From: Gammaproteobacteria bacterium
Lineage (GTDB): Bacteria; Pseudomonadota; Gammaproteobacteria; Steroidobacterales; Rariloculaceae
Direction: 5' to 3'
Assembly: GCA_022820625.1 (NCBI GenBank)
Contig: JAJEFE010000111.1
Span: 2,319-66,318 of the forward strand
DNA: 64,000 nt
Shown here: positions 7,661-37,216 of the stretch, piece after piece
How the letters are laid out: every line of letters begins with the position of its first letter
Numbering within the stretch: the stretch's first letter is position 1
Notes under the pieces: generated by a model
Told to the model about the DNA's origin: nothing
Database searches by the model: none
What the model saw: the letters and a program-made list of their open reading frames with translations, nothing else
Position numbers and translations under genes: made by a program

Positions 7661-8243
7661 ATGGCGCGGGAGTCCGCATTTCTTGAGTCCGGGCCGAAAA
7701 ACGTTTTTGATCGACGATGCTTTCTGCTTGGCCTTGCGTCGAGTCTGGCCCTGCCCCGGCGCGTCGCTTCCCAGGTGCCGGGCAACCCGGACGTGGTGGT
7801 CATCGGCGCAGGGGCCGCGGGACTGGCCGCAACGCGGACGCTGATGGCGATGGGTTACGACGTCGCCCTGCTGGAGGCGGGCGCCCGAATCGGGGGACGC
7901 GCGCATACCAACATGAGCACCTGGGAAGCGATGACGGTCTCCACCGGCGTACTCGGTTCGGGAGCCATCGCGTTCACACCGCCACTCCCCGTGGCAAAGC
8001 AGGAATCGTTCGACGGAGTCTCAATGGGCCTTTACAACCACATCACGCTGCAGTTCGGCGAGGACATCTTCGGATTGGGTGAGGATGGATATCTGTTCTG
8101 GCAATTGCGAGACGAAGGGGGTTTCGGAGTGCTGACCAACGCGAACGGCCATGGTCTTGCCTATTGCGATATCGGCGACCGTCGCCGGTGCGCACCTCTC
8201 CGGTGTTGACAGCGGCGCGAGAGTCGCGCGGATGCTTGCGTAG
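7661..8243 (+). pseudogene. Flavin amine oxidase-like gene, decayed (large internal deletion plus frameshift)
   Basis: Tat-like signal (RRCFLLGLASSLALP) and an intact dinucleotide-binding start (DVVVIGAGAAGLAATRTL...LLEAGARIGGR). About 20 aa later it jumps to C-terminal-type sequence (AFTPPLPVAKQESFDG...ITLQFGEDIF). The expected C-terminal GA..SG..A motif (VAGAHLSGVDSGARVARMLA*) lies in the +1 frame at 8181..8243. Confidence 0.55.
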
Positions 8244-8397: not shown

Positions 8398-9234
8398 TCA
8401 CGCCGCACGCGTCGGGGGCGCGATACCGCCCCATCGCTCGGGAAGATCGGTCGCGTGGTCGTAGACGAGCTTGCCGTCTTCGAGAAAGGGCACGGCGAGA
8501 TTGAGCCGCTCGCCCGTCTGTGAATGGCGGACGGGCGAGCTGGCGTATTGCGGCAGGTAGACGCGTCGCATGCGGTCCGTCCTGTTCGCGCCGCTGCTGT
8601 GCAGGTTGTAGCTCGAGAACGCGACTACGCTGCCCGCCGGAACCTCAATGGTGACTCCCCGATCGTCCCCCGTGTAGCCGACAAGGTCGTTGCTGTCGGG
8701 GTCCCTGTCATGGGTAATGATCCTGTTCGCCGTACCGCCTCGGGAATGCGGTAGCAGGTAAACGGTGCCGTTGGATTCGTCGACGGCGTCCAGTGTGCAC
8801 CAGCACGTGAGATAGGGGTCGTGCACGGTCCCTGAATCCTCGAACTTGACGTAGCCCGAATCCTGGTGCCAGGAGAAGTTCATGCCCTGCTCGGCGCACT
8901 TGACGACCCACTGCTCATGGAAGAGATACGCTTCGGTTCCGAGCGTGGCGCGGCAGACCTCGGCCATGAGGTCGCCGAAGATGAACTGCCACAGCCGCGA
9001 GCTGTAGCGGTAGAGGCCATTGACGAAATACCGTTTGCCCCGAACGGACAGTGCGCCGGCGGGGAGCAGGCCCGCGTCGATGCGGGCGTCCATGTAGCCG
9101 AGGAAGTAGGAACACTCCTCGCGCAGCATCTGCAGCGAATCTTCCGGTATGACGCTTTCGAGGATCATGTAGCCCTCTTCGGCATAGAGGCGCCGGTTCT
9201 CCGTGGAAACCAGATCGGCGTAAAGGTTGGACAT
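8398..9234 (-). CDS. Phytanoyl-CoA dioxygenase (PhyH) family Fe(II)/2-oxoglutarate oxygenase
   Basis: EEGYMILESVIPEDSL, facial-triad-type WHQDSGY (H-x-D), distal NLHSSGANRTDRMRRV (His and Arg). Confidence 0.8.
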   Translation of the reverse strand: MSNLYADLVSTENRRLYAEEGYMILESVIPEDSLQMLREECSYFLGYMDARIDAGLLPAGALSVRGKRYFVNGLYRYSSRLWQFIFGDLMAEVCRATLGTEAYLFHEQWVVKCAEQGMNFSWHQDSGYVKFEDSGTVHDPYLTCWCTLDAVDESNGTVYLLPHSRGGTANRIITHDRDPDSNDLVGYTGDDRGVTIEVPAGSVVAFSSYNLHSSGANRTDRMRRVYLPQYASSPVRHSQTGERLNLAVPFLEDGKLVYDHATDLPERWGGIAPPTRAA

Positions 9235-9374: not shown

Positions 9375-9388
9375 TGAATACGTATGTT
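9375..9388. promoter_or_regulatory. LacI-type operator candidate TGAATACGTATGTT in the divergent PhyH/PhyH-ABC promoter region
   Basis: 14-bp CG-centred near-palindrome. 12/14 identical to the site upstream of the TonB-dependent receptor (39053..39066). It lies 59 nt upstream of the 9447 start. Confidence 0.4.
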
Positions 9389-9446
9389 GTTCGTCACCGG
9401 GCGACGTATAGATAGGTAGAATCGAGTCTTTCGAGAGGGAAGTGCG

Positions 9447-10355
9447 ATGCGGGACGATTCTTCGGTTGCCGCTCAGCCCGCCGACAAGGCTGATTTCTAT
9501 GCGGCGCAGGGCTATCTGATTGTCGAAGACCTGCTGAACAGCGATGAACTGGCGGAGCTCGAAGCCGACCTCATCAAGTTGGCTCGGGGTGGTTATGACG
9601 CACCCGGCTTGAAGGCCGTTGCCGCCGGCGTCAGTAACGTTGAAGCGCTCGAGCGCATCCTCTGCATCCACATGCCCCATTTCGCGTCGCCGGTCGTTCG
9701 GCGGTTCACGACGCATCCCGGGCTCGCGCGGATTCTCGGGCAAATTGTCGGCGCTCACCTGCAGCCCGGGTATTGGAACGGTGGCGTCAAGTGCATGCAA
9801 TCGATGTTCTTCGCCAAGCCGCCTGGAAAGCCCGGTCAGGCTTGGCACCAGGACGAGTGCTTCATTCCCACCCGTGACCGCAGCCTTTGCGCCGCCTGGA
9901 TCGCCATAGACGACGCAACGCCCGAGAACGGCTGTCTGTGGGTCGTGCCCGGCAGCCATCTTTCGGGCACGCTCTATCCGCTGAGGGAGCACAGCCGGAC
10001 CGACGAGTTCGACCCGGCGCCCGAGAGCTACGGGTTTGACGCGAGCAACGAGATTCCGGTCGAATTGCGCGCCGGGTCCGTGTTGTTTTTCAACGGTTAT
10101 CTCTTGCACCGAAGCATGAAGAATACAAGCGGCCGCTATCGGCGCGCGCTCGTGAACCACTACATGAGCACGCAGAGTCTGCTGCACTGGTGCCTCGACG
10201 AGGAACTTGTCGATGGCAGCAGGCACGGATCGGACAACCGCAGCGTGCACGTCGTCTGCGGCGAGGACCCGTACGCCCGGCTCGGCTACAAGATCCCGGC
10301 GAACCCGGTCTTCCTGCGCGAATACGAGGAGCACGGTGACGCGACACCGTCCTGA
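9447..10355 (+). CDS. Phytanoyl-CoA dioxygenase (PhyH) family Fe(II)/2-oxoglutarate oxygenase, first gene of the ABC-importer operon
   Basis: AQGYLIVEDLLNSDEL, WHQDECF (H-x-D), LLHRSMKNTSGRYRRALVNHY. The 3' end overlaps the next gene by 20 nt. Confidence 0.8.
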   Translation: MRDDSSVAAQPADKADFYAAQGYLIVEDLLNSDELAELEADLIKLARGGYDAPGLKAVAAGVSNVEALERILCIHMPHFASPVVRRFTTHPGLARILGQIVGAHLQPGYWNGGVKCMQSMFFAKPPGKPGQAWHQDECFIPTRDRSLCAAWIAIDDATPENGCLWVVPGSHLSGTLYPLREHSRTDEFDPAPESYGFDASNEIPVELRAGSVLFFNGYLLHRSMKNTSGRYRRALVNHYMSTQSLLHWCLDEELVDGSRHGSDNRSVHVVCGEDPYARLGYKIPANPVFLREYEEHGDATPS

Positions 10356-11811
10356 CATCGGCGCGGCAGCACTGTTGCTGTTTGGCGCCACTGCCGGTGT
10401 GCATGCGCAGCAGGTCTCGGTTGACGATGCGGCTCAGGCGTACCGGCAGATTCAGATCGACGTCAGCTACGCACCGTCCGACGCCATCGCGGGTTTCCAA
10501 GTCTGGTACTCCAGCGAGGCCTTCGAGACCACTCGCGACGCTGAATTGCACTCCACGGTCAGCGTGGCCGACACCACCGACCTCGAGCGCGTGCCGGGGG
10601 ACGCCGTCTTCGAACGCTGCTGGAGCGACGGCCTGCCGATACACCGCGACGCTGCCGGCAATCCCGTAGTGAGCACGGCCGCCACCGAATGGTCCTGTGC
10701 GCTGACCGGCATGACGCCCGGCGCCGGGCAATGGATAGCGGTCGTGCCCGTTGACGCCGAAGGCGCGCCGCTCGTGGATCCCGAACGCCTCCAGCCGGTG
10801 GTAGGCCGTACGGACGTACCCGACGAACGGACGCCGCCGCCGGATACGCGGCCGGTCCTGTACGCGCTCGGCATGGTGGCGCTGTCCGCCATCGTGCTGC
10901 TTTCCTTCCTGCGCTGGCAGGACGTCGGCCGCGGCCGCGCGAAGTCCCGCCTGGCTCACATCTACGTCGCGCCGGCCCTGATTGCGCTGGCCACGCTGAC
11001 GTTCTACCCGATCCTCTACGGCATGTGGCTCGCGTTTACCAACGCCGACCAGAGCCGGCTCGGCGACGAAGCCTGGATCGGGCTTGCAAACTTCGCGACG
11101 GTCTTCGCGAGTTCCGGACTCTGGCGCGTGACGCTGTTCACCTTCGTTTGGGCGGTCAGCAATGTCTTCGCGCACGTCTTTCTCGGCCTCGTGCTCGCCG
11201 TCGTGCTCAACCGCCGCGGCCTGCGGGGCAGGACCGTGTATCGCACGATCCTGCTGTTGCCCTGGGCGATTCCCGGCTACATCTCGGTGCTTGCCTGGAA
11301 CGGGATGCTGCAGCCCGACGGCCTCGTCAATGCTTTCCTAGGCACTGCCATCGATTTCTTCGCGGGCGCGAACTCGGCTCGCAGCGTCGTGATTCTCGTG
11401 AACATCTGGCTCGGCGTGCCGTTCATGATGATGGTCCTGAGCGGCGCGCTGCAGGCGCTGCCGTCGAACATGTACGAAGCGGCGAAGATCGACGGCGTCA
11501 GCCGCTGGGACCAGTTTCGCTACCTGACCTTCCCGAACCTCAAGGGCACTCTGGTGCCTGTGAGCCTGCTGAGCTTCATCTGGACCTTCAACACCTTCAA
11601 TACGATTTATCTGCTGACACGAGGCAATCCCTATGTCGGCTTCGGAGAACCGGGCGCGACCGATACGCTGATCACCTACGTGTTCGCCGTGGCGTTCGAG
11701 TACGGACGCTACGGGGTCGCTGCCGCGTGGTCGGTGCTGATCTTCCTGATGCTGGTCGGGTTTTCCTGGCTGTACCTGAAGCGTACACGGGCCATGGAGG
11801 CTGCGGCGTGA
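10336..11811 (+). CDS. Carbohydrate ABC transporter permease (MalF-like) with an N-terminal secreted extra domain
   Basis: GTG at 10336 lies 4 nt after GAGGAG (10326..10331). Signal-like DIGAAALLLFGATAGVHA/QQ is followed by a soluble region of about 170 aa, then a MalF-type core (FYPILYGMWLAFTN, EAAKIDGVSRWDQFRYLTFPNLK EAA loop). The part of ORF 10207.. upstream of 10336 overlaps the PhyH gene and is Arg/Ser/Thr junk. Confidence 0.8.
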   Translation: MTRHRPDIGAAALLLFGATAGVHAQQVSVDDAAQAYRQIQIDVSYAPSDAIAGFQVWYSSEAFETTRDAELHSTVSVADTTDLERVPGDAVFERCWSDGLPIHRDAAGNPVVSTAATEWSCALTGMTPGAGQWIAVVPVDAEGAPLVDPERLQPVVGRTDVPDERTPPPDTRPVLYALGMVALSAIVLLSFLRWQDVGRGRAKSRLAHIYVAPALIALATLTFYPILYGMWLAFTNADQSRLGDEAWIGLANFATVFASSGLWRVTLFTFVWAVSNVFAHVFLGLVLAVVLNRRGLRGRTVYRTILLLPWAIPGYISVLAWNGMLQPDGLVNAFLGTAIDFFAGANSARSVVILVNIWLGVPFMMMVLSGALQALPSNMYEAAKIDGVSRWDQFRYLTFPNLKGTLVPVSLLSFIWTFNTFNTIYLLTRGNPYVGFGEPGATDTLITYVFAVAFEYGRYGVAAAWSVLIFLMLVGFSWLYLKRTRAMEAAA

Positions 11812-13091
11812 CGGTCAGCGCGCGCAACGGCATGGGCGGTGGCCAAGCCACTGTCACACTCGCCGAACGGTGGTACGTGCCGGCGGAGGTCCGGGCGCTG
11901 CGCGCATGGATACCGTTCGCGTTGCTGGTCAATCTGATCATCCTCGGCGGCGAAGCGCTGCGCGGCGGCGGTACGGCACAACTCGCGGTACTGGGAGGGA
12001 TCGTGCTGTTGGCGGTGCTGTGGTGGTCGCTGCCCGACGGACGGCAACAGTGGCGGCGGACTGCGAGCCAGGGCCTCGCGGCTGCGATCCTGGTGCTGGG
12101 CGTGCTTTTGCTGCTGCTGAAGGACGGCGACTTCTACGATCTCTGGGCGAGTTCCTGGCTCATCGCCCCTTCGGCATTGGCGCTTTACTGGTTGTCAACC
12201 GGACTCAGCGGCTCCTGGTGCGCGGGCGATTCAGACCCGCGCTCGGCGGAACTCGGGCTCGCCCGCAACCGCCGCCTTGGCCCGCGGCTCGAGACCTTCG
12301 CCCTGCACACGCTCCTGCTTCACGCGGTGGCGCTCATCGTCGCGCCCGCAGTCTGGATCGTCGATTTGTCCATCTCACCGGGCAACATCCTCGGCGGCGC
12401 CATCGGCGATGCGTTCACGCTCGAACACTTTTGGGCGGTGTTGGGCGGCGAGACATTCTGGCGGTGGACTCGCAACTCCCTGATCGTGGCACTCGGCACG
12501 ACCCTCGTCGGTTTGCTGCTGGCGATACCCGCCGGTTACGCGTTCAGCCGTTACCGGTTTGCCGGCCGCAAGGGCGCGATGTTCGTTTTTATGCTCATCC
12601 AGATGTTTCCGGGCATCGTCATCCTCGTGCCGTACTTCATGGTCATGAAGACCCTTGGGCTGCTCAACACGAGCATCGGCCTGATCATCGCCTATTCGGT
12701 TACCGCGTTGCCGCTGTGCGTGTGGATGCTCAAGGGTTTTTTCGACGCCGTGCCGCGGGCGCTCGAAGAGGCGGCGCTTCTTGACGGCTGCACCCAGGTG
12801 GGCGTGTTCGTCTTCGTCGTCCTGCCATTGTCATTGCCGGCCGTCGCGATCACGGCATTGTTCTCGTTCCTGACGGCCTGGAACGAGTTCCTGCTGGCGC
12901 TCGTGTTCAACACCTCCAATGACTCGTATACGCTGCCGGTCGGACTCGCGTCCATGATTCCCGCCACCGGTCAGCTCTGGGGCGACTTTGCGGCCGCGAG
13001 TATCATCGTGAGCATCCCCGTGGTCGTGCTGTTCGTGCTGTTCCAGCGTGCTCTGATCCAGGGTCTGAGCGCGGGAAGCGTCAAGGGTTAG
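11808..13091 (+). CDS. Carbohydrate ABC transporter permease (MalG-like) with about 4 extra N-terminal TM helices
   Basis: GTG start in a GTGA overlap with the malF-like stop. Core motifs GYAFSRYRF, EEAALLDGCTQVGVF (EAA loop), WNEFLLALVF. An N-terminal hydrophobic extension of about 150 aa. The ORF-track start at 11025 overlaps the previous gene out of frame. Confidence 0.8.
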   Translation: MTVSARNGMGGGQATVTLAERWYVPAEVRALRAWIPFALLVNLIILGGEALRGGGTAQLAVLGGIVLLAVLWWSLPDGRQQWRRTASQGLAAAILVLGVLLLLLKDGDFYDLWASSWLIAPSALALYWLSTGLSGSWCAGDSDPRSAELGLARNRRLGPRLETFALHTLLLHAVALIVAPAVWIVDLSISPGNILGGAIGDAFTLEHFWAVLGGETFWRWTRNSLIVALGTTLVGLLLAIPAGYAFSRYRFAGRKGAMFVFMLIQMFPGIVILVPYFMVMKTLGLLNTSIGLIIAYSVTALPLCVWMLKGFFDAVPRALEEAALLDGCTQVGVFVFVVLPLSLPAVAITALFSFLTAWNEFLLALVFNTSNDSYTLPVGLASMIPATGQLWGDFAAASIIVSIPVVVLFVLFQRALIQGLSAGSVKG

Positions 13092-13094
13092 TGC

Positions 13095-14159
13095 GTGTCT
13101 GACGTCGAATTCATCGAGACGACAAAGGTCTACGACGACGGCACGGTCGCGCTCGATTCACTGAGTCTCAGGGTCCGGAAGGGCGAGTTTCTCGTGTTGC
13201 TCGGTCCGTCCGGCTGCGGCAAGTCGACTGCATTGCGCCTGCTCGCAGGTCTCGAGGACATCACGCGGGGGGAGATCAGGATCGGCGGCTCCAGGGTCAA
13301 CGACCTGCCGCCCGGAGCCCGCGGGCTCGGCATGGTGTTCCAGTCCTATGCCCTGTACCCCCACATGACGGTGCGCGCGAACCTCGCTTTCGGTCTGCGC
13401 CGCAACAGGGGCGATACGCGAGTCAGCGAAGCGGAAATCTCCGCGAGGGTCGAGGAAGCCACCGAATTGCTCGACCTGCGCAAGGTGCTCGAGAAGAAAC
13501 CCCGCGAATTGTCTGGCGGACAGCAGCAGCGGGTCGCCATCGGCCGGGCGCTCGTGCGGCGCCCCAAGGTTCTGCTCATGGACGAGCCGCTGTCCAACCT
13601 CGATGCGAGGCTGCGCAATCGAATGCGTTTCGAACTGCGCCGCCTGCACGAGGCGCACGGCACGACCACGCTCTACGTGACTCACGATCAGGTCGAGGCG
13701 ATGACCCTGGCCGATCGCGTCGCGATCATCTCCGAGGGCAGATTGCAGCAGAGTTCAAGGCCGCTCGAAGCCTATAACCGTCCCGCCAATTCCTTTGTCG
13801 CCTCCTTCCTCGGCACTCCGGCCATGAACCTCATCGAGGGCGCGGCGGAGCGGGGCGTTTTCACTGCCGGCGAACTCAGCTTCGCTCTGCCCGAGCACCT
13901 GGCGGGCTGGACGGGTCCCGGCATCTTCGGCGTTCGCCCGGAGGATGTGCGAATCGGCGAATCCGGGGACGTGCGATGCCGCGTCGGCGGTGTGGAACAC
14001 CTGGGCAGCGATTCGATCTACCACCTCGATGCCGGCGGCAACTGGATCAGGGCGCTCTGGCACCGTTCCGGGGGCGGAGCTGCGGGGTCCGACGGCGAGG
14101 AACACCGCGACGTCAGGGTGGATCTCGCCGTGCCTTCAGCCCTCATCTTCAAGGAATAG
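13095..14159 (+). CDS. Sugar ABC transporter ATP-binding protein (MalK/UgpC-like)
   Basis: Walker A GPSGCGKST, Q-loop, LSGGQQQRVAIGRAL signature, Walker B LLMDEPLSNLD, and a MalK-type C-terminal regulatory domain. GTG start 3 nt after the upstream stop. Confidence 0.9.
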   Translation: MSDVEFIETTKVYDDGTVALDSLSLRVRKGEFLVLLGPSGCGKSTALRLLAGLEDITRGEIRIGGSRVNDLPPGARGLGMVFQSYALYPHMTVRANLAFGLRRNRGDTRVSEAEISARVEEATELLDLRKVLEKKPRELSGGQQQRVAIGRALVRRPKVLLMDEPLSNLDARLRNRMRFELRRLHEAHGTTTLYVTHDQVEAMTLADRVAIISEGRLQQSSRPLEAYNRPANSFVASFLGTPAMNLIEGAAERGVFTAGELSFALPEHLAGWTGPGIFGVRPEDVRIGESGDVRCRVGGVEHLGSDSIYHLDAGGNWIRALWHRSGGGAAGSDGEEHRDVRVDLAVPSALIFKE

Positions 14160-14182
14160 GGCGCGTGTCCGCCGATTGGGAC

Positions 14183-15319
14183 ATGAGCGATCCCTTCGCC
14201 GAGGCGCGCCGCCGCGCAGGCGTGCTGGATGCGGATTTCCTCGGCGAGAGGATTCCTATGATCCTGGCCTACCACGACGTGCGCGCCGCGGCCCATGACT
14301 ACGGCACCTACAGCTCCGATGCGCCGTTTCGCGTGCCTATTCCGTCCGAAGAGCGCGTGCGCAAGGTCAGGCAGTTGCCCATCGAGACCGACCCGCCCGA
14401 GCACACCGAGTACCGGGCGATCGTACAGCCGTTCTTCAGCGTATCCGGGCGTCCCCGACTGGTCGAGGCTGTGGATGTCCTGATCGCTGAAATGCTCGAC
14501 GTAGCAGTAGGGAATTCCCGTCCCGTGGAAGTCGTGCGGGAGTTTGCGCTGCCGCTGCAGTCGCGCGCGCTCACGCTGCTGCTGCGCATGCCGCTTGAGG
14601 CCGCCGATGAATGGATCGGCTGGGGCCTGCACGTCTTTGCGGGCCCTGAAGGGCACAGCGAGGAGAAGGGCAATGTTCTCGACCGCTACCTGCACAGCCA
14701 GTTCGACCGAGCCGAGGCCGATCCTGGCGGCGATTTCTTCAGCGCATTGACCAGGGCGACGTTTCGCGGCCGGTCGTTGACGCGCGATGAGATGATTGGA
14801 TTTGCAAACCTGGTCTTTGCCGGCGGCCGGGATACCGTCATTGCCGCGGTTTCGCTGACGCTTGCGCACTTCGCCATGCACGCCGAAGACCTCCGCAAGG
14901 TGCAGGGCGAACCGCTGTTGGCGCGCCGCGCCGCCGAGGAAATCGTGCGCGTCGCCTCGCCGCTGACGATGATCGCGCGGGTCTGCCCGCAGGTTACCGA
15001 CATCCACGGCACAAGCGTTCCGGCCAACGACCGGGCGGCATTGTGCTGGGCCTCGGCAAACCGCGACGAGACCGTCTTCGAGGCGCCGAACAAACTCCTC
15101 ATCGACCGCAAGCGCAACCCGCATCTGGCGTACGGCGCCGGACCGCATCTTTGTCTTGGCGCATCGTATGCGCGCCTGCTGCTCAGGACGCTGATCAGGC
15201 TGATCGGAAGCAAGATCGGACGAATGGCAGTGGTCGGCTGCGAGCCCCACTACGAGGAAGCGACCGTATACAGGCGTCAAACAGGCTATGCGTCGCTCCG
15301 AATCCGATTTGGGCGCTAG
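14183..15319 (+). CDS. Cytochrome P450 monooxygenase
   Basis: I-helix AGGRDTV, E-x-x-R (EEIVR), heme-thiolate loop YGAGPHLCLGASYAR. ATG at 14183 (alternatively GTG at 14165) follows the ATPase gene by 23 nt. The upstream part of ORF 13976.. overlaps malK out of frame. Confidence 0.85.
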   Translation: MSDPFAEARRRAGVLDADFLGERIPMILAYHDVRAAAHDYGTYSSDAPFRVPIPSEERVRKVRQLPIETDPPEHTEYRAIVQPFFSVSGRPRLVEAVDVLIAEMLDVAVGNSRPVEVVREFALPLQSRALTLLLRMPLEAADEWIGWGLHVFAGPEGHSEEKGNVLDRYLHSQFDRAEADPGGDFFSALTRATFRGRSLTRDEMIGFANLVFAGGRDTVIAAVSLTLAHFAMHAEDLRKVQGEPLLARRAAEEIVRVASPLTMIARVCPQVTDIHGTSVPANDRAALCWASANRDETVFEAPNKLLIDRKRNPHLAYGAGPHLCLGASYARLLLRTLIRLIGSKIGRMAVVGCEPHYEEATVYRRQTGYASLRIRFGR

Positions 15320-15418
15320 GGCGGAGCAGGGAGCCGGCAGCCGACAGCCCCGGTGCGCTTGGGTTGCTGTCATCGACGAGCATGTATCATCGTGTCAGTC
15401 CGTGCAGGTGTTCCGGGG

Positions 15419-15452
15419 ATGTCTTAACCAGGTTGTTCGTCACAGAAGACAT
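15419..15452 (+). promoter_or_regulatory. Intra-operon inverted repeat ATGTCTT-N20-AAGACAT with nested AACCAGGTT
   Basis: Perfect 7-bp arms seen directly, located between the P450 stop and the binding-protein start in an otherwise lower-GC spacer. Function unknown (mRNA processing or stability hairpin, or a protein site). Confidence 0.3.
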
Positions 15453-15471
15453 TCTTGTAATACAATAACTT

Positions 15472-16794
15472 ATGGAGCATAAGGCGACGGTGGCTTACGT
15501 TTTTCACATCGGTCCCGGCGGCAGGCTTGCCTGTGGCCTGGCAGCCGTCCGGGTTGCGCTCCGTGCCACGGTCCTGCTGGCGGCACTACTGTTCGCGTCG
15601 CCGCCCGGCCGTGGCGCCGATGGCGAAGCCGCGATGCTCGAGGTCTGGCACACCTTTGGGACCAACAGCGAAGATGAGCGGATTTTCATGGGCGCCGTGG
15701 AAGCGTTCGAAGCCGCACATCCAGAAATTGCCGTGGAACCCGTGCGCATCCCCTACCTGCAGAATCTCCAGCAGTTCATCAATTCGTCACAGGGTGGGGA
15801 GGCCCCGGATGTCGTACGCCTCTCCGATACGGAACTCGGCAGGATCGGTCACATTTCAGTGGAGGGATTACCGCTGCTGGAGGATCTTCGGCCGCACTTG
15901 ACGCCGGTTCAACGCGCGCGCTTCGAGCCGCGTGCGCTGAACGCGATGCGCTACGGCGGTGCGCTGTATGCGATCCCGGTCAGTCAGGGCACGCTGGCGC
16001 TGCTTTACAACAAGGCTCTGTTCGACGCCGCGGGAGTCGGGTATCCGCGCGACGACTGGACCACGGACGACCTCATCGCCGCCGCCAAGGCTCTGACCGG
16101 CGACGACGTGCTCGGCATCGCGCTGCCGATCAGGTGGTCTTACTGGTTCATCCCGTTCCTGACGGGTTTCGGCGCGACATTGTTCGACGCCGATGCCAAT
16201 CCAACGCTCGATTCGCCGGGTTCCGCGCGAGCGCTTGAGTGGTACCTCGACCTCGAGCGCGTCCACGGCATCGCCGCTTCGAGTACGGGCATCGAGACGA
16301 TGTCGACGCAGTTTCAGCTATCGAGGGCGGCGATGGTGCTCGATGGTTCCTGGAACTGGAACGCCTATGTCGCGGCCGGGCTCGACCTTGGCCTGGCGAT
16401 CATGCCCATCGTTGCGGATACGGGAAACCGGATGGGTCCAATGCTCAGCGTGTTCGGCTGGAGCGTCTCGAAGCAGAGCGCGAGCAAGGTGGAGGCCGTC
16501 AAGCTCGCGCAGTGGCTGTCGTCCTACGACGTGCAGAAGGAATTCGCGATCGAAACCTACATGATCCCGACCGATCTCGCGCTTGCAAGGGACCCCGACA
16601 TTGCCGCAAATTCGACGCTGAACGGTTACCTCAGGCAGACGGAATTCGGCGCCGAAGTGCCGACGACGCGCGCAACCTACATGGTCTTCGAACAGCTCGA
16701 CACCGCGCTGGAACTGACTTCCACGGGCCAGATGGACGCGCGCTCGGCGCTTGAGGCCGCCGACGAGGAAATGGAGCGGATACTGCGGCAATAG
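15472..16794 (+). CDS. ABC transporter extracellular solute-binding protein, family 1 (sugar-binding, MalE-like)
   Basis: Hydrophobic signal region, then EVWHTFG....RIFMGAVEAFEAAHPEIAVEP, DVVRLSDTELGR, LLYNKALFDAAGV, typical of carbohydrate SBPs. The exact start is uncertain. Confidence 0.85.
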   Translation: MEHKATVAYVFHIGPGGRLACGLAAVRVALRATVLLAALLFASPPGRGADGEAAMLEVWHTFGTNSEDERIFMGAVEAFEAAHPEIAVEPVRIPYLQNLQQFINSSQGGEAPDVVRLSDTELGRIGHISVEGLPLLEDLRPHLTPVQRARFEPRALNAMRYGGALYAIPVSQGTLALLYNKALFDAAGVGYPRDDWTTDDLIAAAKALTGDDVLGIALPIRWSYWFIPFLTGFGATLFDADANPTLDSPGSARALEWYLDLERVHGIAASSTGIETMSTQFQLSRAAMVLDGSWNWNAYVAAGLDLGLAIMPIVADTGNRMGPMLSVFGWSVSKQSASKVEAVKLAQWLSSYDVQKEFAIETYMIPTDLALARDPDIAANSTLNGYLRQTEFGAEVPTTRATYMVFEQLDTALELTSTGQMDARSALEAADEEMERILRQ

Positions 16795-16827: not shown

Positions 16828-18246
16828 CTACTCGAAAATCGTGAGCGCCTCCGACATGCCCATGTCCTCCTTCCAGGCCTCGATGAGCGCCTGGAATTCC
16901 GTAACGAGTTCGGGATAGTCGTCCACGAGATTCTGTTCTGCCAGGCGATCGACGGTGACGTCGTAGAGCACCATGTCGCCGGTGTCCGCGTACCAGAGGA
17001 ACTGCCAGCGGTGAGTGCGCACCGAGTACCCCTCGGCGCGTTCCCCCATGGGCGTGGTCGTCGAACGCCGGTTGTCGGTATACCCGACGAGATGCGTGCG
17101 CTCCGGCATCGAGCGCCCCTCGATCAACGGCAGCAGGGAGTAACCGGGCAGTCCCTGCGGGATTTCGACGCCCGCGAGGTCCAGAATCGTCGGGAAGATG
17201 TCCATGGAAGAGACCAGGCTTGACGTATTGAACGAGTGGCGCAGGCGGTCCTTCCAATAGAAGACCAGGGGCGAGCGGAAGGACTGGTCGTAGAGCCCGT
17301 TCTTGCCGAGCGGCCCACCGTTGCCGAGCAGGTGATCGGTGGCGACTGTCGAGTCCTCGTGATGCTTGTACTCGACATTGGCGTCCTGTTCCCAGCCGTT
17401 GTCGCTGATGTATACGAAGAGCGTGTCGTCCATGAGCCCGTGGCTCTCGATGTGGTCCAGCAGCCGGCCTACGCCGTCGTCCCACCAGGTCACATTGGAG
17501 TAGTAGAGTTTTGCGGACTCCGAGATGTCCTTGTCCTGGTAGTACTTGCGGTAGGTGTATGGCGCGTCGAACGGCACGTGCGGCAGCGAGGGAGCGAACC
17601 AGATGAAGAACGGCTGTTCCCTGTTGCGGTCGATGAAATCGAATACCGGCTCCATCGTCTCGCGCACCAGATCGTTGCCGGCGGCCCCCATCAGTTCCTC
17701 GAAGAAAGTGTCGCCGCCGTAGGCCGACATGTCCCAGCCTTCGCTCATGCCTTCGGAGAAGTGGCCGTTGCGATAGTTGTTCTCCCACCATTTGCCGCCC
17801 TGCCAACTGACGTAGCCGGCCTCGCCGAGCAGCTTCGGCAGCGTGTCGAATTCGCGCATGGCCGCGGCCTTTTCGACCTGGTCCCAGAGGCCCCTCCGCA
17901 CGCTATCGAACGAGGCGTAGTCGGCGTCTTCGCTTCGCCGCCGTTCGACAATCTCGGTTTCGCGCTGAACGTATTGCACCGGGTGTAGGCCAGTGATCAG
18001 CGTGCGCAGGGACGGGCGGCAATAGGTCGCCGTGACGTGGGCGTGAGAGAATGTCACGCCGCCCGCGGCGAGCGCGTCCATCGAGGGGGTGACGACATTC
18101 TCGTCGCCCATGAATCCGAAATAGGGATAGCCGTGATCGTCACCCACGAGCAATACGATATTGGGTGGTCTCTGGGCGATTGCGGCGCCGCAGGCGAAGA
18201 CAAGCACAACGAGTAAGAGCCGATGGATACGCAGCACGCGGTTCAT
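16828..18246 (-). CDS. Sulfatase (formylglycine-type fold) with non-canonical C-R-P-S-L-R maturation motif
   Basis: PPNIVLLVGDDHGY metal site. The motif ATYCRPSLRTLITG keeps sulfatase spacing but has Leu where the CxPxR Arg is expected. ISDNGW. ATG at 18246 is preceded by GGAGG, 25 nt after the GH13 stop. The TTG at 18291 in the ORF track would overlap the GH13 gene. Confidence 0.85.
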   Translation of the reverse strand: MNRVLRIHRLLLVVLVFACGAAIAQRPPNIVLLVGDDHGYPYFGFMGDENVVTPSMDALAAGGVTFSHAHVTATYCRPSLRTLITGLHPVQYVQRETEIVERRRSEDADYASFDSVRRGLWDQVEKAAAMREFDTLPKLLGEAGYVSWQGGKWWENNYRNGHFSEGMSEGWDMSAYGGDTFFEELMGAAGNDLVRETMEPVFDFIDRNREQPFFIWFAPSLPHVPFDAPYTYRKYYQDKDISESAKLYYSNVTWWDDGVGRLLDHIESHGLMDDTLFVYISDNGWEQDANVEYKHHEDSTVATDHLLGNGGPLGKNGLYDQSFRSPLVFYWKDRLRHSFNTSSLVSSMDIFPTILDLAGVEIPQGLPGYSLLPLIEGRSMPERTHLVGYTDNRRSTTTPMGERAEGYSVRTHRWQFLWYADTGDMVLYDVTVDRLAEQNLVDDYPELVTEFQALIEAWKEDMGMSEALTIFE

Positions 18247-18271
18247 CTCGGACCTCCGAATTCGCGGCGCT

Positions 18272-20986
18272 TTATTCCGGCGCCAGTTCAAGCAGCGCGT
18301 CGTCCAGGATCTTCGGATCGCCGGGCTCGCCGCCGCTGAAAAACCAATCAGCGGGCTCGGACCGGAAGTCGATATAGTCGCCTTCGGCCGTAGCCGACCA
18401 TGTGGTCACGTAGACACGGCTTCCCGTCCAATCGTCGACTCCGAGCGCGTCGCCTTCGTAGAACAGGGTGATGGAGCGGCTGTCCCGATCGGCGCTCACC
18501 CGGGGAGAAACGCCCAGCTTGTCGCCCTGGCGGTTTGCGTCGCTGCCCGATGCGAGATAGGTATAGCTGTCCCAGCCACGGGCGAAGTGCGCAAGATCCC
18601 AATCCATCGATTCGGGCGCGCTGGCGTCGAGCAAGGGCAGCACTGTTGCGCCTTCCCGGTCCGGCAGGTCGAAAAACGTGGTCAGCAGAACATTGTCGAA
18701 ACCGTAGGGCGGCAACCAGGGCGTGGTGATTTCCGCCATGGTCAGGGTAAGTTCGAGGTTGCGTCCGGCGGTTCGCGCGCTCAAGGACTCGATCTCGCGC
18801 TGACGCGCGCTGTCGGGGTGCTGCGGTCTCACATATTGCCCGGTCGGGCCGTAGGCATCGTCCGGATCGTCCGCGACCTCGGCCGACAATACCGCATCCG
18901 CCACTCGAGTCGTGTAGTTGACACGCTCGGACAACCCATCGGATTCCGCCGAGTACACCTGCAGGAAGTGGGACGATTCACCGAGATCGCGAACGGGTAC
19001 TTCGATCCGCCATTCGCCCTGATCGTCCGCGGTGAAATCGGTCGCGCGATCGAAGTTGCCGTTCGGGATCAATTGCAAGGGCGCGTTGTCGCGGCTGACC
19101 CTGCCCGTGAGTTCGAAATCCCCGGTGAAGACGGCGCCTTCGATCCCCGACGAATCCACCACGATGTCAAGGTCCACGGCTGACTCGCCGGACGGCGCCG
19201 TCTCGCCGATGGACCGCAGCACGACAGTCGCCCTCGGCGGCAGCCGCAGACTCAGGCGTCCATCCGCGTCGGTGATTGCGGATTCCGCGGCGGGTTCGGC
19301 GAACAGCGCCTCCAGTCGCTGAAACGGCAGCGCGCCGACTTCGATACGATGGGCGAACGCGGTGTGATTTGCGGTGTTAAGCAAGACGATCACGCTCTCG
19401 CCCTGGTATTCGCGCCGGTAAGCCAGCACACCCGGCCCGGCGGACTCGGACGCCAGCACCTCAAGGCCGCCGCGGACCAGCACGGGATGTTCCGCGCGCA
19501 ACGCGGTCAGCCGCTGAAGGTATCGAAAGTGCTCGGAGTTCTCGTCGAACGACCCTTCGACGTTGCGGTAGCCGCCCGCGAACATTGCCATGCGCGATTC
19601 CGGCAGCGCCTGTTCCGTGCCCTGGTAAACGACGGGGATGCCCGGAATCGTGAACAGCAGCGCCAGCGCCTGGCGGAAAGATGCCGGGTGCCCGGCCGCA
19701 AGGAATCTCGCGGTGTCGTGATTGTCGATGAAGTTCGGAATCGTGAACGGATCCGGGTATAGCTCCATATACCGTTCCAGGCGGTAGCCGAGTGTCGCGG
19801 AAGGCGCGCCCCGGGCCAGGGCCCGGTTGATTTCATGATACAGGGGGTAGCCCAGCATGGAATTCGGGCCCAGCATGCCATCGGTCTCCAGGTACGCAAC
19901 CACCCTGCGTTCCCCTGCGTCGTCGTACGGATCGGACACCGCGGTCGCCTCGCCGAAGGTGAGGAAAAACTCCTTGCCGCGCTCACGGGCATGGGCGTAG
20001 ATGCCGTCGTCGTCGCGCAGGAACCGGTTCCAGAACGGGAACGGAACCAGGGAGACGGTATCCATGCGGAACGCGTCCACTCCCACCTCGTCGATCCAGA
20101 ACTTGTAGATCTCCTTGAACTTGGCGATCACCACGGGGTTTTCGGTGTTGATGTCGCCGACATGCCCGAGCGAGTAGTAGTGCTCCTGCTGGAGGCTGGC
20201 GAAGTCGGTAATCGGCGGGGTCCAGTGGTAGATGTCCGCGGCGTAATGCTCGGGATTGAGCCGGTCGATCTGGTTGAATGGGTATTGCACGGGCGCCGGC
20301 TGGTGGGAGTCCGGCTCCAGCAGGTAGAAACCCGCGGCAGTGTCATCGGGGTCGTATTCGCCTTCGTAGGCGTAGAAATTGCCGACGTGATTGGAGATCG
20401 TGTCCTGGATCAGGTACATCCCGCGGCAGTGCAATTCATGGGACAGGCGCTTGTAGTCGTCGAGCGTACCGTAGTGCGGGTCGACTTCCTGGAAATGCAC
20501 CGGCCAGTAGCCGTGCCAGCCGGTGGCCTGGTACGGCGTGCTCCACCACTGGTTGTAAAAGATCGGCGTAGTCCACACGGCCGTCATGCCGAGCCTGCGC
20601 AGGTAGTCGAGGCGGTCGATCACGCCCTGCAGGTCGCCGCCGCTGAAGTGGCTGGGCTGGCTTGGGTCGTATTCGCCGTAGCCCTGGTCGTTATTGGTTG
20701 GATCGCCGTCGTCGAAGCGGTCGGTCATCAGCATGTAGATGACCTGATCGCGCCAGTCGGGGGATGGCAAGTGCTGCAACTGCCGGTCGCCGGACGCGCA
20801 GGTTCCGGCACGGGCCAGGGCATCGGACGCTTGCGCGATGTTCCCGTCGTTCGGGATCGCGTCGGCGGGTTCCGGCGCCGGCACGCCCGAGCCGCGCTCC
20901 ACTTCGACTTCACCCGGAGAGCACGCCGCCAGTGACAGAAAAACGGTAACGAACAGGGTCTTGCGCATCGTGATCAACAATGACAT
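18272..20986 (-). CDS. GH13 alpha-amylase-family lipoprotein (about 900 aa) with a long C-terminal beta-rich extension
   Basis: Lipobox FLSLAAC. GH13 regions I-IV: YLIQDTISNH, GVDAFRMDTV, FLTFGEA, NFIDNHDTARF. The C-terminal ~350 aa resembles glucodextranase-type C-terminal domains (from memory, unverified). Alternative start at 20968. Confidence 0.85.
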   Translation of the reverse strand: MSLLITMRKTLFVTVFLSLAACSPGEVEVERGSGVPAPEPADAIPNDGNIAQASDALARAGTCASGDRQLQHLPSPDWRDQVIYMLMTDRFDDGDPTNNDQGYGEYDPSQPSHFSGGDLQGVIDRLDYLRRLGMTAVWTTPIFYNQWWSTPYQATGWHGYWPVHFQEVDPHYGTLDDYKRLSHELHCRGMYLIQDTISNHVGNFYAYEGEYDPDDTAAGFYLLEPDSHQPAPVQYPFNQIDRLNPEHYAADIYHWTPPITDFASLQQEHYYSLGHVGDINTENPVVIAKFKEIYKFWIDEVGVDAFRMDTVSLVPFPFWNRFLRDDDGIYAHARERGKEFFLTFGEATAVSDPYDDAGERRVVAYLETDGMLGPNSMLGYPLYHEINRALARGAPSATLGYRLERYMELYPDPFTIPNFIDNHDTARFLAAGHPASFRQALALLFTIPGIPVVYQGTEQALPESRMAMFAGGYRNVEGSFDENSEHFRYLQRLTALRAEHPVLVRGGLEVLASESAGPGVLAYRREYQGESVIVLLNTANHTAFAHRIEVGALPFQRLEALFAEPAAESAITDADGRLSLRLPPRATVVLRSIGETAPSGESAVDLDIVVDSSGIEGAVFTGDFELTGRVSRDNAPLQLIPNGNFDRATDFTADDQGEWRIEVPVRDLGESSHFLQVYSAESDGLSERVNYTTRVADAVLSAEVADDPDDAYGPTGQYVRPQHPDSARQREIESLSARTAGRNLELTLTMAEITTPWLPPYGFDNVLLTTFFDLPDREGATVLPLLDASAPESMDWDLAHFARGWDSYTYLASGSDANRQGDKLGVSPRVSADRDSRSITLFYEGDALGVDDWTGSRVYVTTWSATAEGDYIDFRSEPADWFFSGGEPGDPKILDDALLELAPE

Positions 20987-21017: not shown

Positions 21018-21031
21018 TGAATACGATTGCA
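21018..21031. promoter_or_regulatory. LacI-type operator candidate TGAATACGATTGCA in the GH13 / alpha-glucosidase divergent region
   Basis: CG-centred 14-mer, 12/14 identical to 39053..39066. It lies in the 188-bp divergent intergenic region. Confidence 0.4.
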
Positions 21032-21174: not shown

Positions 21175-22806
<1,632 letters not shown>

Positions 22807-22868: not shown

Positions 22869-23882
22869 TCAGACCGGGCCGCAGGAATCCCGCACGATCA
22901 GCTCGGGCTGGATGAGTTGCGATTCGACGTAGTCCCCCCGGACCAGCCGCAACAGGGTATCCACCATGACCTCCCCGGCCTTGACAGTATTCTGCCGAAC
23001 GGTTGTCAACGCCGGCGACATGTGCGTCGCGGAGGGAATATTGTCGAACCCGACGATCGACACGTCCTCCGGAATGCTCAGGTTTTCCTTCTGAACGGCA
23101 TGGACAGCGCCGAGCGCGGTCAGGTCGCTGCTGCTGAAGATCGCGCTGAAGCCGTTTCCGCGGGAAAAAAGTTCCCGCGCCGCGAGATGGCCGCTGTGCA
23201 TGGATGAGTGGGACGATGCCTGAAGCTCGGGGTCCACACTCAATCCGGCTTGTAGCAACGCGTCGCAGTATCCGCTGTAGCGGTCCTTGAATTCCGGGCA
23301 GTCATCCGAGATGTCGCCGAGAAAGCCGATGCGGGTATGCCCGAGTTCCAGCAGGTACCGGGTCGCGATGTAGCCGCCACGCCGGTTGTCGCAGCCGACG
23401 AAGTGGCCGGGCTGACCGTCGATGACGGGGCCCCAGGTCAGTACATGGGCATTGTCGAGCAGTTCGATCTTACGGATGTAGTCGGTATAGCCGCCGTAGC
23501 CCAGGAGGATGATGCCTTCTGCCTTGTTGCTGTTCTCGTAGTCGGCGATCCAGTTCTTGCTCAATTGCTGGAATGACAGCAGTACATCGTAGTTTCTCGC
23601 TGCCGCCGCTCTTGTGATGCTGGCCAGCATCGACACGAAGAACGGATTGATGTCGGAGTCCATCCCAGACTCCTCGTGCACCAGCATGGCGATGGTGCGG
23701 CTGTGCTGGGAGCGCAGGTTGCTGGCGCTGCGGTCCACCTTGTAATTGTGTTCCCTGGCGATGCGCTGGATTCTGCGGCGGGTCTCGGGATTGACCAGCG
23801 GGCTCTTGCGCAGGGCGCGCGAAACGGTGGACTGGGAGACGCCCGCCAGTTCAGCTATTTCAAGCGAGGTCACCTTGTGCAT
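22869..23882 (-). CDS. LacI-family transcriptional regulator
   Basis: N-terminal HTH VTSLEIAELAGVSQSTVSRALR plus a periplasmic-binding-protein-like sugar-sensor domain. 337 aa. Confidence 0.9.
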   Translation of the reverse strand: MHKVTSLEIAELAGVSQSTVSRALRKSPLVNPETRRRIQRIAREHNYKVDRSASNLRSQHSRTIAMLVHEESGMDSDINPFFVSMLASITRAAAARNYDVLLSFQQLSKNWIADYENSNKAEGIILLGYGGYTDYIRKIELLDNAHVLTWGPVIDGQPGHFVGCDNRRGGYIATRYLLELGHTRIGFLGDISDDCPEFKDRYSGYCDALLQAGLSVDPELQASSHSSMHSGHLAARELFSRGNGFSAIFSSSDLTALGAVHAVQKENLSIPEDVSIVGFDNIPSATHMSPALTTVRQNTVKAGEVMVDTLLRLVRGDYVESQLIQPELIVRDSCGPV

Positions 23883-27871: not shown

Positions 27872-27963
27872 GAGGCCGGTGAGCCATGCCGGACAACGCG
27901 CCCGCCGGACACTCATCGGACAAGCATTCGCGTACGGCCCGCATGCCGGTATAGTGCTGGCGC

Positions 27964-29472: not shown

Positions 29473-29506
29473 ATGAGAGGGCGAGTCCTTCCATTGGCGA
29501 TTTTCT

Positions 29507-29551
29507 GGGATATTTTCACCTGGAAAGTGATAAAAGGCGGGATATTTTCAC
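29507..29551 (+). promoter_or_regulatory. Two perfect 13-nt direct repeats GGGATATTTTCAC (29507..29519, 29539..29551) flanking an inverted partial copy (GTGATAAAA)
   Basis: Seen directly in the AT-rich 152-bp spacer upstream of the MFS gene. The repeat period is 32 nt. Confidence 0.35.
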
Positions 29552-29624
29552 TTTGCGACCAAAAAATGCGGACAAACTCCCTTATGGCCGGTAGACGCCA
29601 CTTATCCACGAAAATGAGCAACTG

Positions 29625-31124: not shown

Positions 31125-31146
31125 TTTCAGACTCAGGTGAAATGCA

Positions 31147-36967: not shown

Positions 36968-36992
36968 CCAAGCGGGACCCCGCAACGCTGGG

Positions 36993-37199: not shown

Positions 37200-37216
37200 G
37201 GACACGTCGCCACAAT

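Follow-up and report, generated by a model that had tools for sequence, protein, structure and literature searches.

A sugar import operon with genes for a CYP236-family cytochrome P450 and a PhyH-type dioxygenase in a sulfatase-rich, starch-like locus of a marine gammaproteobacterium

An import operon with oxygenase genes

The contig JAJEFE010000111.1 (assembly GCA_022820625.1) of a marine gammaproteobacterium possesses a maltose-type sugar import operon in a large, sulfatase-rich, starch-like glycan-degradation locus; we analyzed 64,000 nucleotides (nt) of it (positions 2,319 to 66,318, forward strand), and this whole stretch is referred to as the window. According to the open reading frame (ORF) listing, Pfam and NCBIfam, the plus strand encodes successively the Fe(II)/2-oxoglutarate (2OG) dioxygenase PhyH1, a MalF-like and a MalG-like permease, a MalK-like ATP-binding cassette (ABC) protein, a cytochrome P450 and a family-1 solute-binding protein, and a second dioxygenase gene, phyH2, is divergent. 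It seems fairly probable that these six genes are responsible for the inner-membrane and cytoplasmic steps within a LacI-controlled, TonB-dependent, starch-like locus for a decorated α-glucan or α-glucoside, whose decorations would be sulfate groups, probably O-methyl groups and possibly acyl groups. The P450 belongs to the CYP236 family outside subfamily A and is predicted, by homology to CYP236A2, to be a methyl-sugar O-demethylase.

The packing of the six genes and the divergent position of phyH2 agree with the preliminary description of this DNA, and all operon gene identities are confirmed by gene calls made independently on near-identical metagenome contigs. The first gene, phyH1 (9447-10355, plus strand; 302 amino acids (aa); Pfam PF05721, E 1.6e-41), overlaps the malF-like gene (10336-11811, plus; 491 aa) by 20 nt, with a GAGGAG at 10326-10331, 4 nt 5' of the GTG at 10336. 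The malF-like gene shares a GTGA with the malG-like gene (11808-13091, plus; 427 aa), which is separated by 3 nt from the gene of the MalK/UgpC-type ATPase (13095-14159, plus). These three junctions, read directly from the sequence, are as described earlier. A gap of 23 nt had been assumed between malK and the P450 gene (start at ATG 14183). However, the P450 (14165-15319, plus) most likely starts with the GTG at 14165, 5 nt after malK, because the gene caller used this codon and most relatives have the same 5-nt gap; indeed, an exact look-up of the P450 sequence with the ATG start gave no match, and the recorded gene starts at the upstream GTG. The tight junctions (overlaps or 5-nt gaps) are conserved in relatives. 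The gene for the solute-binding protein (15472-16794, plus; 440 aa; SBP_bac_1, E 3.5e-32) closes the operon.

Pfam, NCBIfam and solved-structure matches assign the importer to the carbohydrate uptake transporter 1 (CUT1, MalEFGK-type) systems, in line with its earlier description as a sugar importer. Both permeases carry the BPD_transp_1 domain (PF00528); the NCBIfam MalF model (E 2.9e-55) covers residues 245-486 only of the first, and the MalG model (E 3.2e-50) covers residues 160-427 of the second. The ATPase (PF00005) has the C-terminal OB/TOBE regulatory domain (OB_MalK, TOBE_2, CysA_C_terminal) and scores with UgpC (E 1.7e-115) and MalK (E 5.8e-98). The best solved-structure matches of the family-1 binding protein are the acarbose/maltose-binding protein GacH and MalE homologues (~1e-28); SmoF is also found among its matches. 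The ligand may be an α-glucoside, which is favored by the context of glycoside hydrolase (GH) family 13 genes and by the presence of the α-glucosidase gene inside the operon in two loci of relatives (L098 and L100; loci of relatives are given here by L numbers).

Both permeases have unusual N-terminal additions (window positions 10336-10860 and 11808-12290) that are conserved in relatives. According to hydropathy profiles, the MalF-like protein begins with a signal-like segment (AHA/QQ) followed by a periplasmic domain of ~145 aa before the first core transmembrane segment. This domain has no match in Pfam; E. coli MalF possesses the P2 loop instead. In the MalG-like protein, the addition is ~160 residues long and contains three to four transmembrane segments (about four more than MalG).

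The P450 is a full-length homologue of CYP236A2

The P450 matches PF00067 above the cut-off and possesses the three elements noticed earlier, i.e., the I-helix (AGGRDT), the ExxR motif (EEIVR) and the Cys loop (HLCLG). Its best solved-structure match is 6G5O/6G5Q (P450ZoGa, CYP236A2; E 3.6e-95, residues 2-377 of 378), which outscores the next solved structures by ~60 orders of magnitude in E-value. This enzyme is the 6-O-methyl-D-galactose (G6Me) demethylase of Zobellia galactanivorans (PMC6292453). The preliminary description had cited G6Me demethylation as a parallel; the full-length homology goes beyond mere analogy. The identity of the window P450 to CYP236A2 (sequence rebuilt from the alignment) is 42% (157 of 375 aligned positions), and that to nine Bacteroidota homologues is 37-47%. 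With the nomenclature lines of at least 40% identity for a family and at least 55% for a subfamily, the protein falls in CYP236, just above the family line, and outside subfamily A.

We aligned the window protein and P450ZoGa with 89 homologues from public genomes (91 sequences). Residues E62, R66 and Q70 of the B-C loop, which hold O2, O3 and O4 of the sugar in P450ZoGa (PMC6292453), are retained in the window P450 and in all 91 sequences. Furthermore, the window P450 retains G220, G221, D223 and T224 (acid-alcohol pair), L267 and the Cys ligand C330; exceptions among the aligned proteins are limited to three single-sequence cases (L267 twice, G220 once). Since the P450 is a CYP236A2 homologue, cytoplasmic oxidative O-demethylation of an imported methyl-sugar can be inferred on good grounds, and since the sugar-binding triad is retained, a 6-O-methyl hexose would be its most likely substrate.

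The preliminary description found no redox partner of the P450 in the window, and this holds. When ferredoxin, reductase and AraC proteins encoded in loci of Bacteroidota or Opitutia were used as queries, tblastn gave no match in the 64-kb window, and a regex scan of the window for Fe-S Cys motifs matched only off-frame ORFs and no real ones. Of the eight Bacteroidota loci, seven have the genes for ferredoxin and its reductase directly after the P450 gene, and in the eighth (L070) a ferredoxin gene follows before the contig ends; six of the eight have an AraC gene upstream of the P450 gene. In a few Opitutia loci a ferredoxin gene lies upstream of the P450 gene. The other examined loci of the Planctomycetota-Verrucomicrobiota-Chlamydiota (PVC) group and all gammaproteobacterial loci examined have neither ferredoxin nor reductase genes beside the P450 gene.

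A further ORF of the window (7661-8209; 182 aa) covers just the FAD/NAD(P)-binding Rossmann part at the N-terminus of an amine-oxidase/DAO-type flavoprotein. It is apparently truncated and is missing from L147, which is otherwise syntenic; a function as P450 reductase is unlikely.

Predicted conversion of a decorated α-glucan

The predicted pathway would start outside the cytoplasm, where a lipoprotein GH13 amylase together with secreted S1 sulfatases and esterases would cut and partly strip the polymer. The fragments would be taken up through the TonB-dependent receptor, and the resulting oligosaccharides would be imported by the MalEFGK-type ABC system. In the cytoplasm, the HaG-type GH13 α-glucosidase may free the monomers, and the CYP236-family P450 would hydroxylate the O-methyl group of a hexose, leading to the free sugar and formaldehyde, with electrons from a ferredoxin and a reductase encoded elsewhere. 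PhyH1 would oxidize a second feature of the same imported glycan, with PhyH2 as an accessory paralogue. The preliminary description suggested import and cytoplasmic oxidative stripping of a methylated or sulfated sugar; the CYP236A2 homology supports the methyl part, whereas oxidative desulfation is without positive evidence.

Judged by its gene content, the locus is a gammaproteobacterial TonB-dependent starch/maltodextrin locus to which eight sulfatase, several esterase and three oxygenase genes are added. In total, the window encodes four GH13 enzymes, GH97, GH43, esterases, eight S1 sulfatases, a TonB-dependent receptor and a LacI regulator. In the solved-structure search its α-glucosidase is very close to Halomonas HaG and Xanthomonas XgtA. 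The context of GH13, GH97, receptor and LacI genes points to an α-glucan-type substrate rather than to porphyran.

Several points weigh against this pathway. Residues V58, F73, L267 and M270 are absolutely conserved in CYP236A and needed for binding; V58A and F73A abolish G6Me binding by P450ZoGa, and M270A weakens it ~40-fold (PMC6292453). The window P450 has P58, I73, L267 and I270 at these positions, and the same three substitutions (V58P, F73I, M270I) mark every non-Bacteroidota homologue, whereas V, F and M are retained in the nine sequences of the Bacteroidota type. With these pocket residues changed, the substrate may therefore differ from G6Me, or be no sugar at all. Hydroxylation of cyclohexane has been reported for a CYP236A enzyme (PMC11910816). 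Moreover, ~60 homologues of the P450 in Verrucomicrobiota and Planctomycetota are found without ABC or GH13 context, so the P450 clade is not specific to α-glucans, and no redox-partner gene is present within 64 kb by tblastn and the Fe-S motif scan. In one close relative (L090), the locus lacks P450 and phyH2 (see below). The binding protein matches the NCBIfam model of the galacto-oligosaccharide binder GanS (E 1.4e-28) about as well as GacH and MalE. Furthermore, the locus could combine systems for several glycans, we know of no natural α-glucan of this habitat that is both sulfated and methylated, and the proposed pathway is a computational prediction.

The GanS-like score and the P450 homology would also fit another possibility, namely that the operon imports agar or porphyran oligosaccharides of red algae and that the P450 demethylates G6Me as CYP236A does: the closest characterized enzyme is a G6Me demethylase, the polar triad for O2, O3 and O4 is kept, and sulfatases are typical of porphyran loci. 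We regard this as unlikely. The glycoside hydrolases among the scanned window ORFs belong to GH13 (four), GH97 and GH43, with no agarase or porphyranase family among them; the α-glucosidase gene is co-operonic with the transporter genes in L098 and L100; V58, F73 and M270, invariant in CYP236A, are replaced; and the ferredoxin, reductase and AraC genes of the Bacteroidota loci are not adjacent. In addition, the same P450 clade is common in metagenome-assembled genomes (MAGs) labelled as lake, soil or wastewater Verrucomicrobiota. The names of many related MAGs (SB06xx, IRC1, KELL22) suggest that these may stem from sponges. A sulfated glucan of sponges and a mycobacterial-type methylglucose polysaccharide were considered as substrates but not adopted; searches of the literature on sulfated glucans of sponges, and on PhyH together with sulfatase, sponge or polysaccharide, yielded nothing useful.

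The PhyH dioxygenases

Both dioxygenases belong to the PhyH family, with PF05721 scores of 143 (PhyH1) and 74 bits (PhyH2) at a cut-off of 22; their identity to each other is 25%. PhyH2 (8398-9234, minus strand; 278 aa; E 2.6e-20) carries the motifs WHQD...LHSS...RMRR and has EvdO2 as its best, remote solved-structure match. The H-x-D...H...R signature described earlier is indeed present in both proteins. In PhyH1, residues H134, D136, H221 and R232/R233 are invariant in 35 homologues. The iron triad and Arg of the two proteins align to those of PHYHD1 and EvdO2. PhyH1 is predicted to be cytoplasmic, without transmembrane segment or signal peptide.

The AlphaFold2 model of PhyH1 (mean confidence, pLDDT, 85.8) shows the PhyH fold, with Foldseek matches of TM-score 0.55-0.62 by query length and up to 0.73 by target length. 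The 50 listed matches include MysH, PhyH, SnoK/N, PHYHD1, proline hydroxylase and EvdO2, i.e., generic PhyH-fold neighbors without a substrate clue. SnoK/SnoN and EvdO1/EvdO2 (acting on sugar moieties of natural products) and PHYHD1 are among the best sequence and structure matches of PhyH1 and PhyH2. Common features are the double-stranded β-helix of the PhyH family, the iron-binding HxD...H and the Arg that binds 2OG. However, the identity is 15-25% (TM-score 0.55-0.73), and those enzymes are involved in biosynthetic tailoring, whereas here the genes belong to a catabolic sugar-uptake operon. No substrate of PhyH1 or PhyH2 can be deduced from these matches.

The preliminary description had compared the dioxygenases with the TauD/AtsK type, which is not confirmed. 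Both proteins match PF05721 only, with remote similarity to PHYHD1, SnoK/N, EvdO and MysH; the TauD family (PF02668) gave no match at E <= 0.01 in Pfam/NCBIfam for either protein, and no TauD or AtsK structure occurs among their sequence matches or among the 50 listed fold matches of PhyH1. This bears on the possibility that the PhyH proteins cleave sugar sulfate esters in the cytoplasm as AtsK does, hydroxylating the ester-bearing carbon to release sulfate and an oxo-sugar. The eight sulfatase genes do indicate a sulfated substrate, phyH1 directly follows the gene of an S1 sulfatase (sulfatase A) in L090, and the many basic residues invariant in PhyH1 homologues (K115, K124, R143, R145 and several His) would agree with a ligand that is anionic. 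Nevertheless, this possibility appears improbable: besides the missing TauD/AtsK match, the locus has many hydrolytic sulfatases, the operon-adjacent sulfatase A carries a signal peptide, no gene for an oxo-sugar reductase is present in the operon, and we know of no precedent for sulfate-ester cleavage by a PhyH-fold enzyme. We propose only that the PhyH proteins oxidize some feature of the imported glycan.

PhyH1 belongs to an unnamed and uncharacterized clade of more than 6000 proteins (E <= 1e-20; 55-60% identity across phyla). Being the most constant partner of the α-glucoside uptake and cleavage genes in these Gammaproteobacteria, it is a candidate for a new carbohydrate-active oxygenase. 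A bolder version, which we consider possible though doubtful, is that PhyH1 is the first member of a new class of Fe(II)/2OG oxygenases active on carbohydrates and acts with the redox-partner-less CYP236-clade P450 as a cytoplasmic decoration-stripping module, in which each enzyme removes from imported α-glucan oligosaccharides different substituents that hydrolases cannot, or can hardly, cleave off (methyl ethers, possibly sulfate esters) and the non-Bacteroidota P450 clade has a substrate other than G6Me, e.g., 6-O-methyl-glucose.

Distant PhyH1 homologues are found in heterogeneous, mostly carbohydrate-related contexts (GH44, DUF5060, apionate lactonase, other CUT1 permeases). Those with 52-58% identity in other phyla (L135-L137, L106/L108/L109, L132, L134) have mixed neighbors, including apionate-lactonase, RuBisCO-like, sugar-kinase, DUF5060 or GH44 genes. 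In Caldilineaceae, the homologues directly follow a different CUT1 permease pair, and in Verrucomicrobiota and Polyangiales a divergent AraC regulator gene is the commonest neighbor. These contexts are too heterogeneous for a transfer of function.

Concerning PhyH2, genes for a Trp-halogenase-like protein, a major facilitator superfamily (MFS) transporter and GH43 follow phyH2 on the same strand in L001 (2-4998) and L097 (3988-7817), so phyH2 may be the first gene of a separate operon of the locus. The three genes (27964-32868) are 19 kb away from phyH2 in the window.

Conservation of the gene set

MAGs labelled Pseudohongiella, Pseudomonadales, Gammaproteobacteria and Candidatus (Ca.) Rariloculaceae have the full arrangement, with protein identities of 70-92%. 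The set of PhyH1, ABC, α-glucosidase, sulfatase A, P450, PhyH2 and amylase genes recurs in several gammaproteobacterial lineages, i.e., Pseudohongiella, other Pseudomonadales, Ca. Rariloculaceae, Lysobacterales and one unclassified Pseudomonadota MAG. The synteny of PhyH, ABC and P450 genes, whose conservation the preliminary description proposed to examine, is thus kept in part: the order is shuffled in L098, L100 and L117, and P450 and phyH2 are missing from L090. In L098, the order is PhyH1, binding protein, MalFGK, α-glucosidase, P450. In L100 (Lysobacterales), the P450 and PhyH2 genes are on one strand, and the genes for PhyH1, binding protein, MalFGK, α-glucosidase and sulfatase are on the opposite one. 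In both cases the α-glucosidase gene directly follows malK. The retention of the set through this shuffling argues that all genes of the module work on one substrate.

In L117, all genes are rearranged, and the P450 of the locus has its nearest relatives among PVC sequences (51%) and not among gammaproteobacterial ones. As this P450 is of a different, PVC-like lineage yet present in the same locus, an independent recruitment is suggested. Note that in L117 (OZ244040.1; 8001-9747 and 15268-16083) the locus P450 gene is on the opposite strand, that the PhyH1 match covers residues 13-210 only, so that this PhyH1 may be truncated, and that a second, unrelated P450 gene (27%) follows malK. In L125 (a Woeseiaceae MAG), a PhyH1 homologue is encoded between the amylase and α-glucosidase genes, next to LacI and MFS genes, and no ABC genes are present in the 16.8 kb covered.

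The preliminary description took absence of the oxygenase genes from close relatives as a point against itself, and this is found in part. L090 is the most similar species-representative genome found (MalF and MalK, 90%). Its locus (OY761822.1, 6545-16900) encodes sulfatase A, PhyH1, MalF, MalG, MalK and the binding protein, with phyH1 directly after the sulfatase A gene and 67 nt between malK and the binding-protein gene, and neither P450 nor PhyH2 is encoded in the 16.9 kb covered. This absence refers to the locus level; a pattern-based genome scan also missed a P450 that is present in L086. As the L090 operon lacks P450 and phyH2, and phyH1 is kept in every locus that covers its position, the former two appear to be accessory and PhyH1 to be the constant oxygenase.

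Such an absence could also mean that the oxygenases are passengers acting on non-carbohydrates (hydrocarbons, lipids or compatible solutes) that came into their position by local rearrangement. The hydroxylation of cyclohexane by a CYP236A enzyme in vitro (PMC11910816), PhyH1 homologues of ~55% identity in many unrelated contexts, the splitting of the operon in one MAG and a foreign cassette in the P450/binding-protein spacer of another would agree with this. We nevertheless judge it quite improbable: the gene set survives shuffling across several families, the overlapping or 5-nt junctions are conserved, the operon shares its operator with the amylase and receptor genes, and all 91 aligned P450 sequences have the same polar triad for sugar binding. 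Even the distant PhyH1 contexts are mostly carbohydrate-related (GH44, DUF5060, apionate lactonase, Caldilineaceae CUT1 permeases). A function of the oxygenases in the conversion of the imported glycan is therefore what we favor.

The split mentioned above was observed in a Pseudohongiella MAG (L004/L097; OZ241324.1), where PhyH2 and PhyH1-MalF-MalG genes are ~290 kb away from MalK-P450 genes; this could be a rearrangement or a misassembly.

Operators and intergenic regions

A LacI-type operator (TGAATACGnnTGCA) is found before the operon, between the amylase and α-glucosidase genes, and before the receptor gene. The site between phyH2 and phyH1 reads TGAATACGTATGTT (9375-9388), and its left half, TGAATACG, is identical to those of the operator-like sites TGAATACGATTGCA (21018-21031, between the divergent amylase and α-glucosidase genes) and TGAATACGTATGCA (39053-39066, ~75 nt upstream of the gene for the TonB-dependent receptor). 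The loci of relatives were searched with these three 14-mers, allowing up to 2 mismatches. Equivalent sites (TGAATACGATTGCA, TGAATTCGATTGCA, TGAATACGTTTGCA) occur in the phyH2/phyH1 intergenic region of nine loci (L001, L002, L006, L086, L087, L095, L097, L100, L129); L001 and L002 also have an identical TGAATACGATTGCA in the same amylase/α-glucosidase intergenic region. All sites with 0-1 mismatches in relatives are close to locus genes, mostly in the phyH2/phyH1 or amylase intergenic regions. The remaining ones are located upstream of the sulfatase A gene (L090), between α-glucosidase and sulfatase genes (L117) and at unannotated upstream positions in L087, L095 and L125. In the relatives with 91-92% identity (L146, L147) the 9375 site is unchanged although adjacent bases vary.

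The operator-like site between the PhyH genes, noticed already in the preliminary description, is thus supported by its repeats in the window and by its conservation. With a LacI gene in the locus (22869-23882, minus strand; PF00356, Peripla_BP_1, Peripla_BP_3) and palindromic TGnAAnCGnTTnCA-like sites before locus genes that are conserved in relatives, the comparative data support well the assignment of the operon to the regulon of this LacI-family regulator.

A degenerate second copy, CGCATACGCATGCA, is located a few bases before TGAATACGTATGCA upstream of the receptor gene (39030-39066), which suggests tandem operators in this region. In relatives, the phyH2/phyH1 intergenic region contains, in its part next to phyH2, the invariant motif GTTCGTCAAC, which is related to the 12-mer GTTGTTCGTCAC. 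In the window, GTTGTTCGTCAC itself occurs exactly twice in 64 kb, at 9386-9397 before phyH1 and at 15432-15443 before the binding-protein gene. It is not conserved in the ~80% relatives and only partly in the 91% relatives, and was not counted in the mechanism.

The second copy of GTTGTTCGTCAC lies in the spacer between the P450 and binding-protein genes (15320-15471, plus strand) and overlaps a promoter-like match (TCGTCA-18-TACAAT, 15437-15466) from a scan whose match count did not exceed that of shuffles. The length of the spacer, 152 nt, is as reported earlier, but the inverted repeat described in it is weak, with arms of 18 nt that are 72% complementary. We gave up the assumption that the spacer forms a structured attenuator or terminator, because its folding was no better than that of shuffles (z -1.6), terminator and promoter scans gave no more matches than shuffles, and Rfam had no match anywhere in the 64-kb window; it does not resemble a terminator. 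The operon varies in this spacer: in L001 (11255-12876), a two-gene cassette of ~1.7 kb is inserted here, encoding an XRE-helix-turn-helix/ImmA-like metallopeptidase with an HELFH motif and a 173-aa protein.

Relation to known systems

Neither the P450 family nor the importer type nor the PhyH fold is new. Like the CYP236A enzymes P450ZoGa of Z. galactanivorans and P450FoAg of Formosa agariphila (PMC6292453), the window P450 has the short architecture of ~380 aa with full-length homology, E62/R66/Q70, G220/G221, D223/T224, L267 and the Cys ligand, and it is encoded in a sulfatase-rich polysaccharide-utilization locus. It differs from them in its identity (below 55%), in V58P/F73I/M270I and in the lack of adjacent ferredoxin, reductase or AraC genes. 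Furthermore, its gene is part of a CUT1 ABC operon, 5 nt after malK, in a GH13/α-glucan rather than agar/porphyran context, and the protein belongs to a large, mostly Verrucomicrobiota/Planctomycetota clade that shares the pocket substitutions.

The importer resembles the MalEFGK/GacH-type systems in its MalF/MalG-matching permeases, its MalK/UgpC ATPase with regulatory tail and its binding protein closest to GacH/MalE. Likewise, amylase, α-glucosidase, cyclomaltodextrinase, TonB-dependent receptor, Trp-halogenase-like protein, LacI and palindromic operators are shared with LacI-regulated gammaproteobacterial starch/maltodextrin loci. Unlike in these systems, oxygenase genes are present inside the transporter operon, and the locus has eight sulfatases and several esterases.

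Operons that combine an ABC importer with a cytoplasmic oxygenase include tauABCD (TauD), ssuEADCB, phnY*/phnZ and the smo cluster of Agrobacterium (sulfoquinovose monooxygenase). As predicted for the present operon, the importer is co-transcribed there with a cytoplasmic oxygenase that removes a substituent of the imported molecule, and smo shares in addition the glycoside cargo and the family-1 binding protein. However, these systems use TauD-type, flavin-dependent or HD-domain enzymes instead of PhyH and P450, they scavenge sulfur or phosphorus or cleave C-S bonds, and none of them pairs a P450 with a 2OG dioxygenase. The coupling of an oxygenase to ABC permease genes, presented earlier as undescribed, therefore has precedents as far as 2OG dioxygenases with ABC importers are concerned (tauABCD, phnY*/phnZ), but none was found for sugar CUT1 importers: our literature search gave no description of a 2OG dioxygenase in a sugar CUT1 importer operon, nor of this system.

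What is new here is an uncharacterized sister clade within CYP236 with a remodelled pocket and no linked partners, encoded inside a sugar ABC operon and paired with an uncharacterized PhyH clade in an α-glucan and sulfatase context. Methyl ethers of sugars cannot be removed by hydrolases and are thought to make marine carbohydrates persistent. To our knowledge, the only characterized enzymes that remove them are those of CYP236A with their own ferredoxin and reductase, in agar/porphyran-degrading Flavobacteriia. The sister clade occurs widely among Verrucomicrobiota and Planctomycetota and in several Gammaproteobacteria, and a P450 wired into a sugar importer operon offers a concrete and testable setting in which its substrate may be sought.

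The surrounding glycan locus

Downstream of the operon, the minus strand encodes sulfatase A (16828-18291; PF00884, E 4.4e-48; signal peptide) and the lipoprotein GH13 α-amylase with a Glucodextran_C tail (18272-20986, minus; 904 aa; match to a solved α-amylase structure, E 1.6e-159; lipobox LSLAAC). The cytoplasmic GH13 α-glucosidase of the HaG/XgtA type (21175-22806, plus; 6AAV, E 1.5e-205; 3WY1, E 2.8e-199) follows on the other strand, next to the LacI gene. Gene calls and Pfam on the identical contig L138 place GH97, Trp-halogenase-like, MFS transporter, GH43 and three S1 sulfatase genes at 25793-38995 (plus), and the TonB-dependent outer-membrane receptor (Plug, TonB_dep_Rec_b-barrel) is encoded at 39142-41925 (plus). 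According to Pfam, the distal part (43220-58648) contains three more sulfatase genes, two of them between the receptor and second amylase genes and one after the tannase/feruloyl esterase gene. The second amylase likewise carries Glucodextran_C; in addition to it and to the tannase/feruloyl esterase, this part encodes a SASA esterase, a protein of the beta-lactamase family, a Sugar_tr MFS transporter and a cyclomaltodextrinase.

The sulfatase A gene is co-located with the operon in L001-3, L006, L090, L100 and L117. Instead of the usual S1 active-site motif C-x-P-x-R, the protein has CRPSLR (residues 91-96; window positions 18004-18021, minus strand). The other seven sulfatases of the window possess CxPxR, whereas CRPSLR is conserved in all module orthologues of sulfatase A (L001-3, L090, L094, L095, L100, L117).

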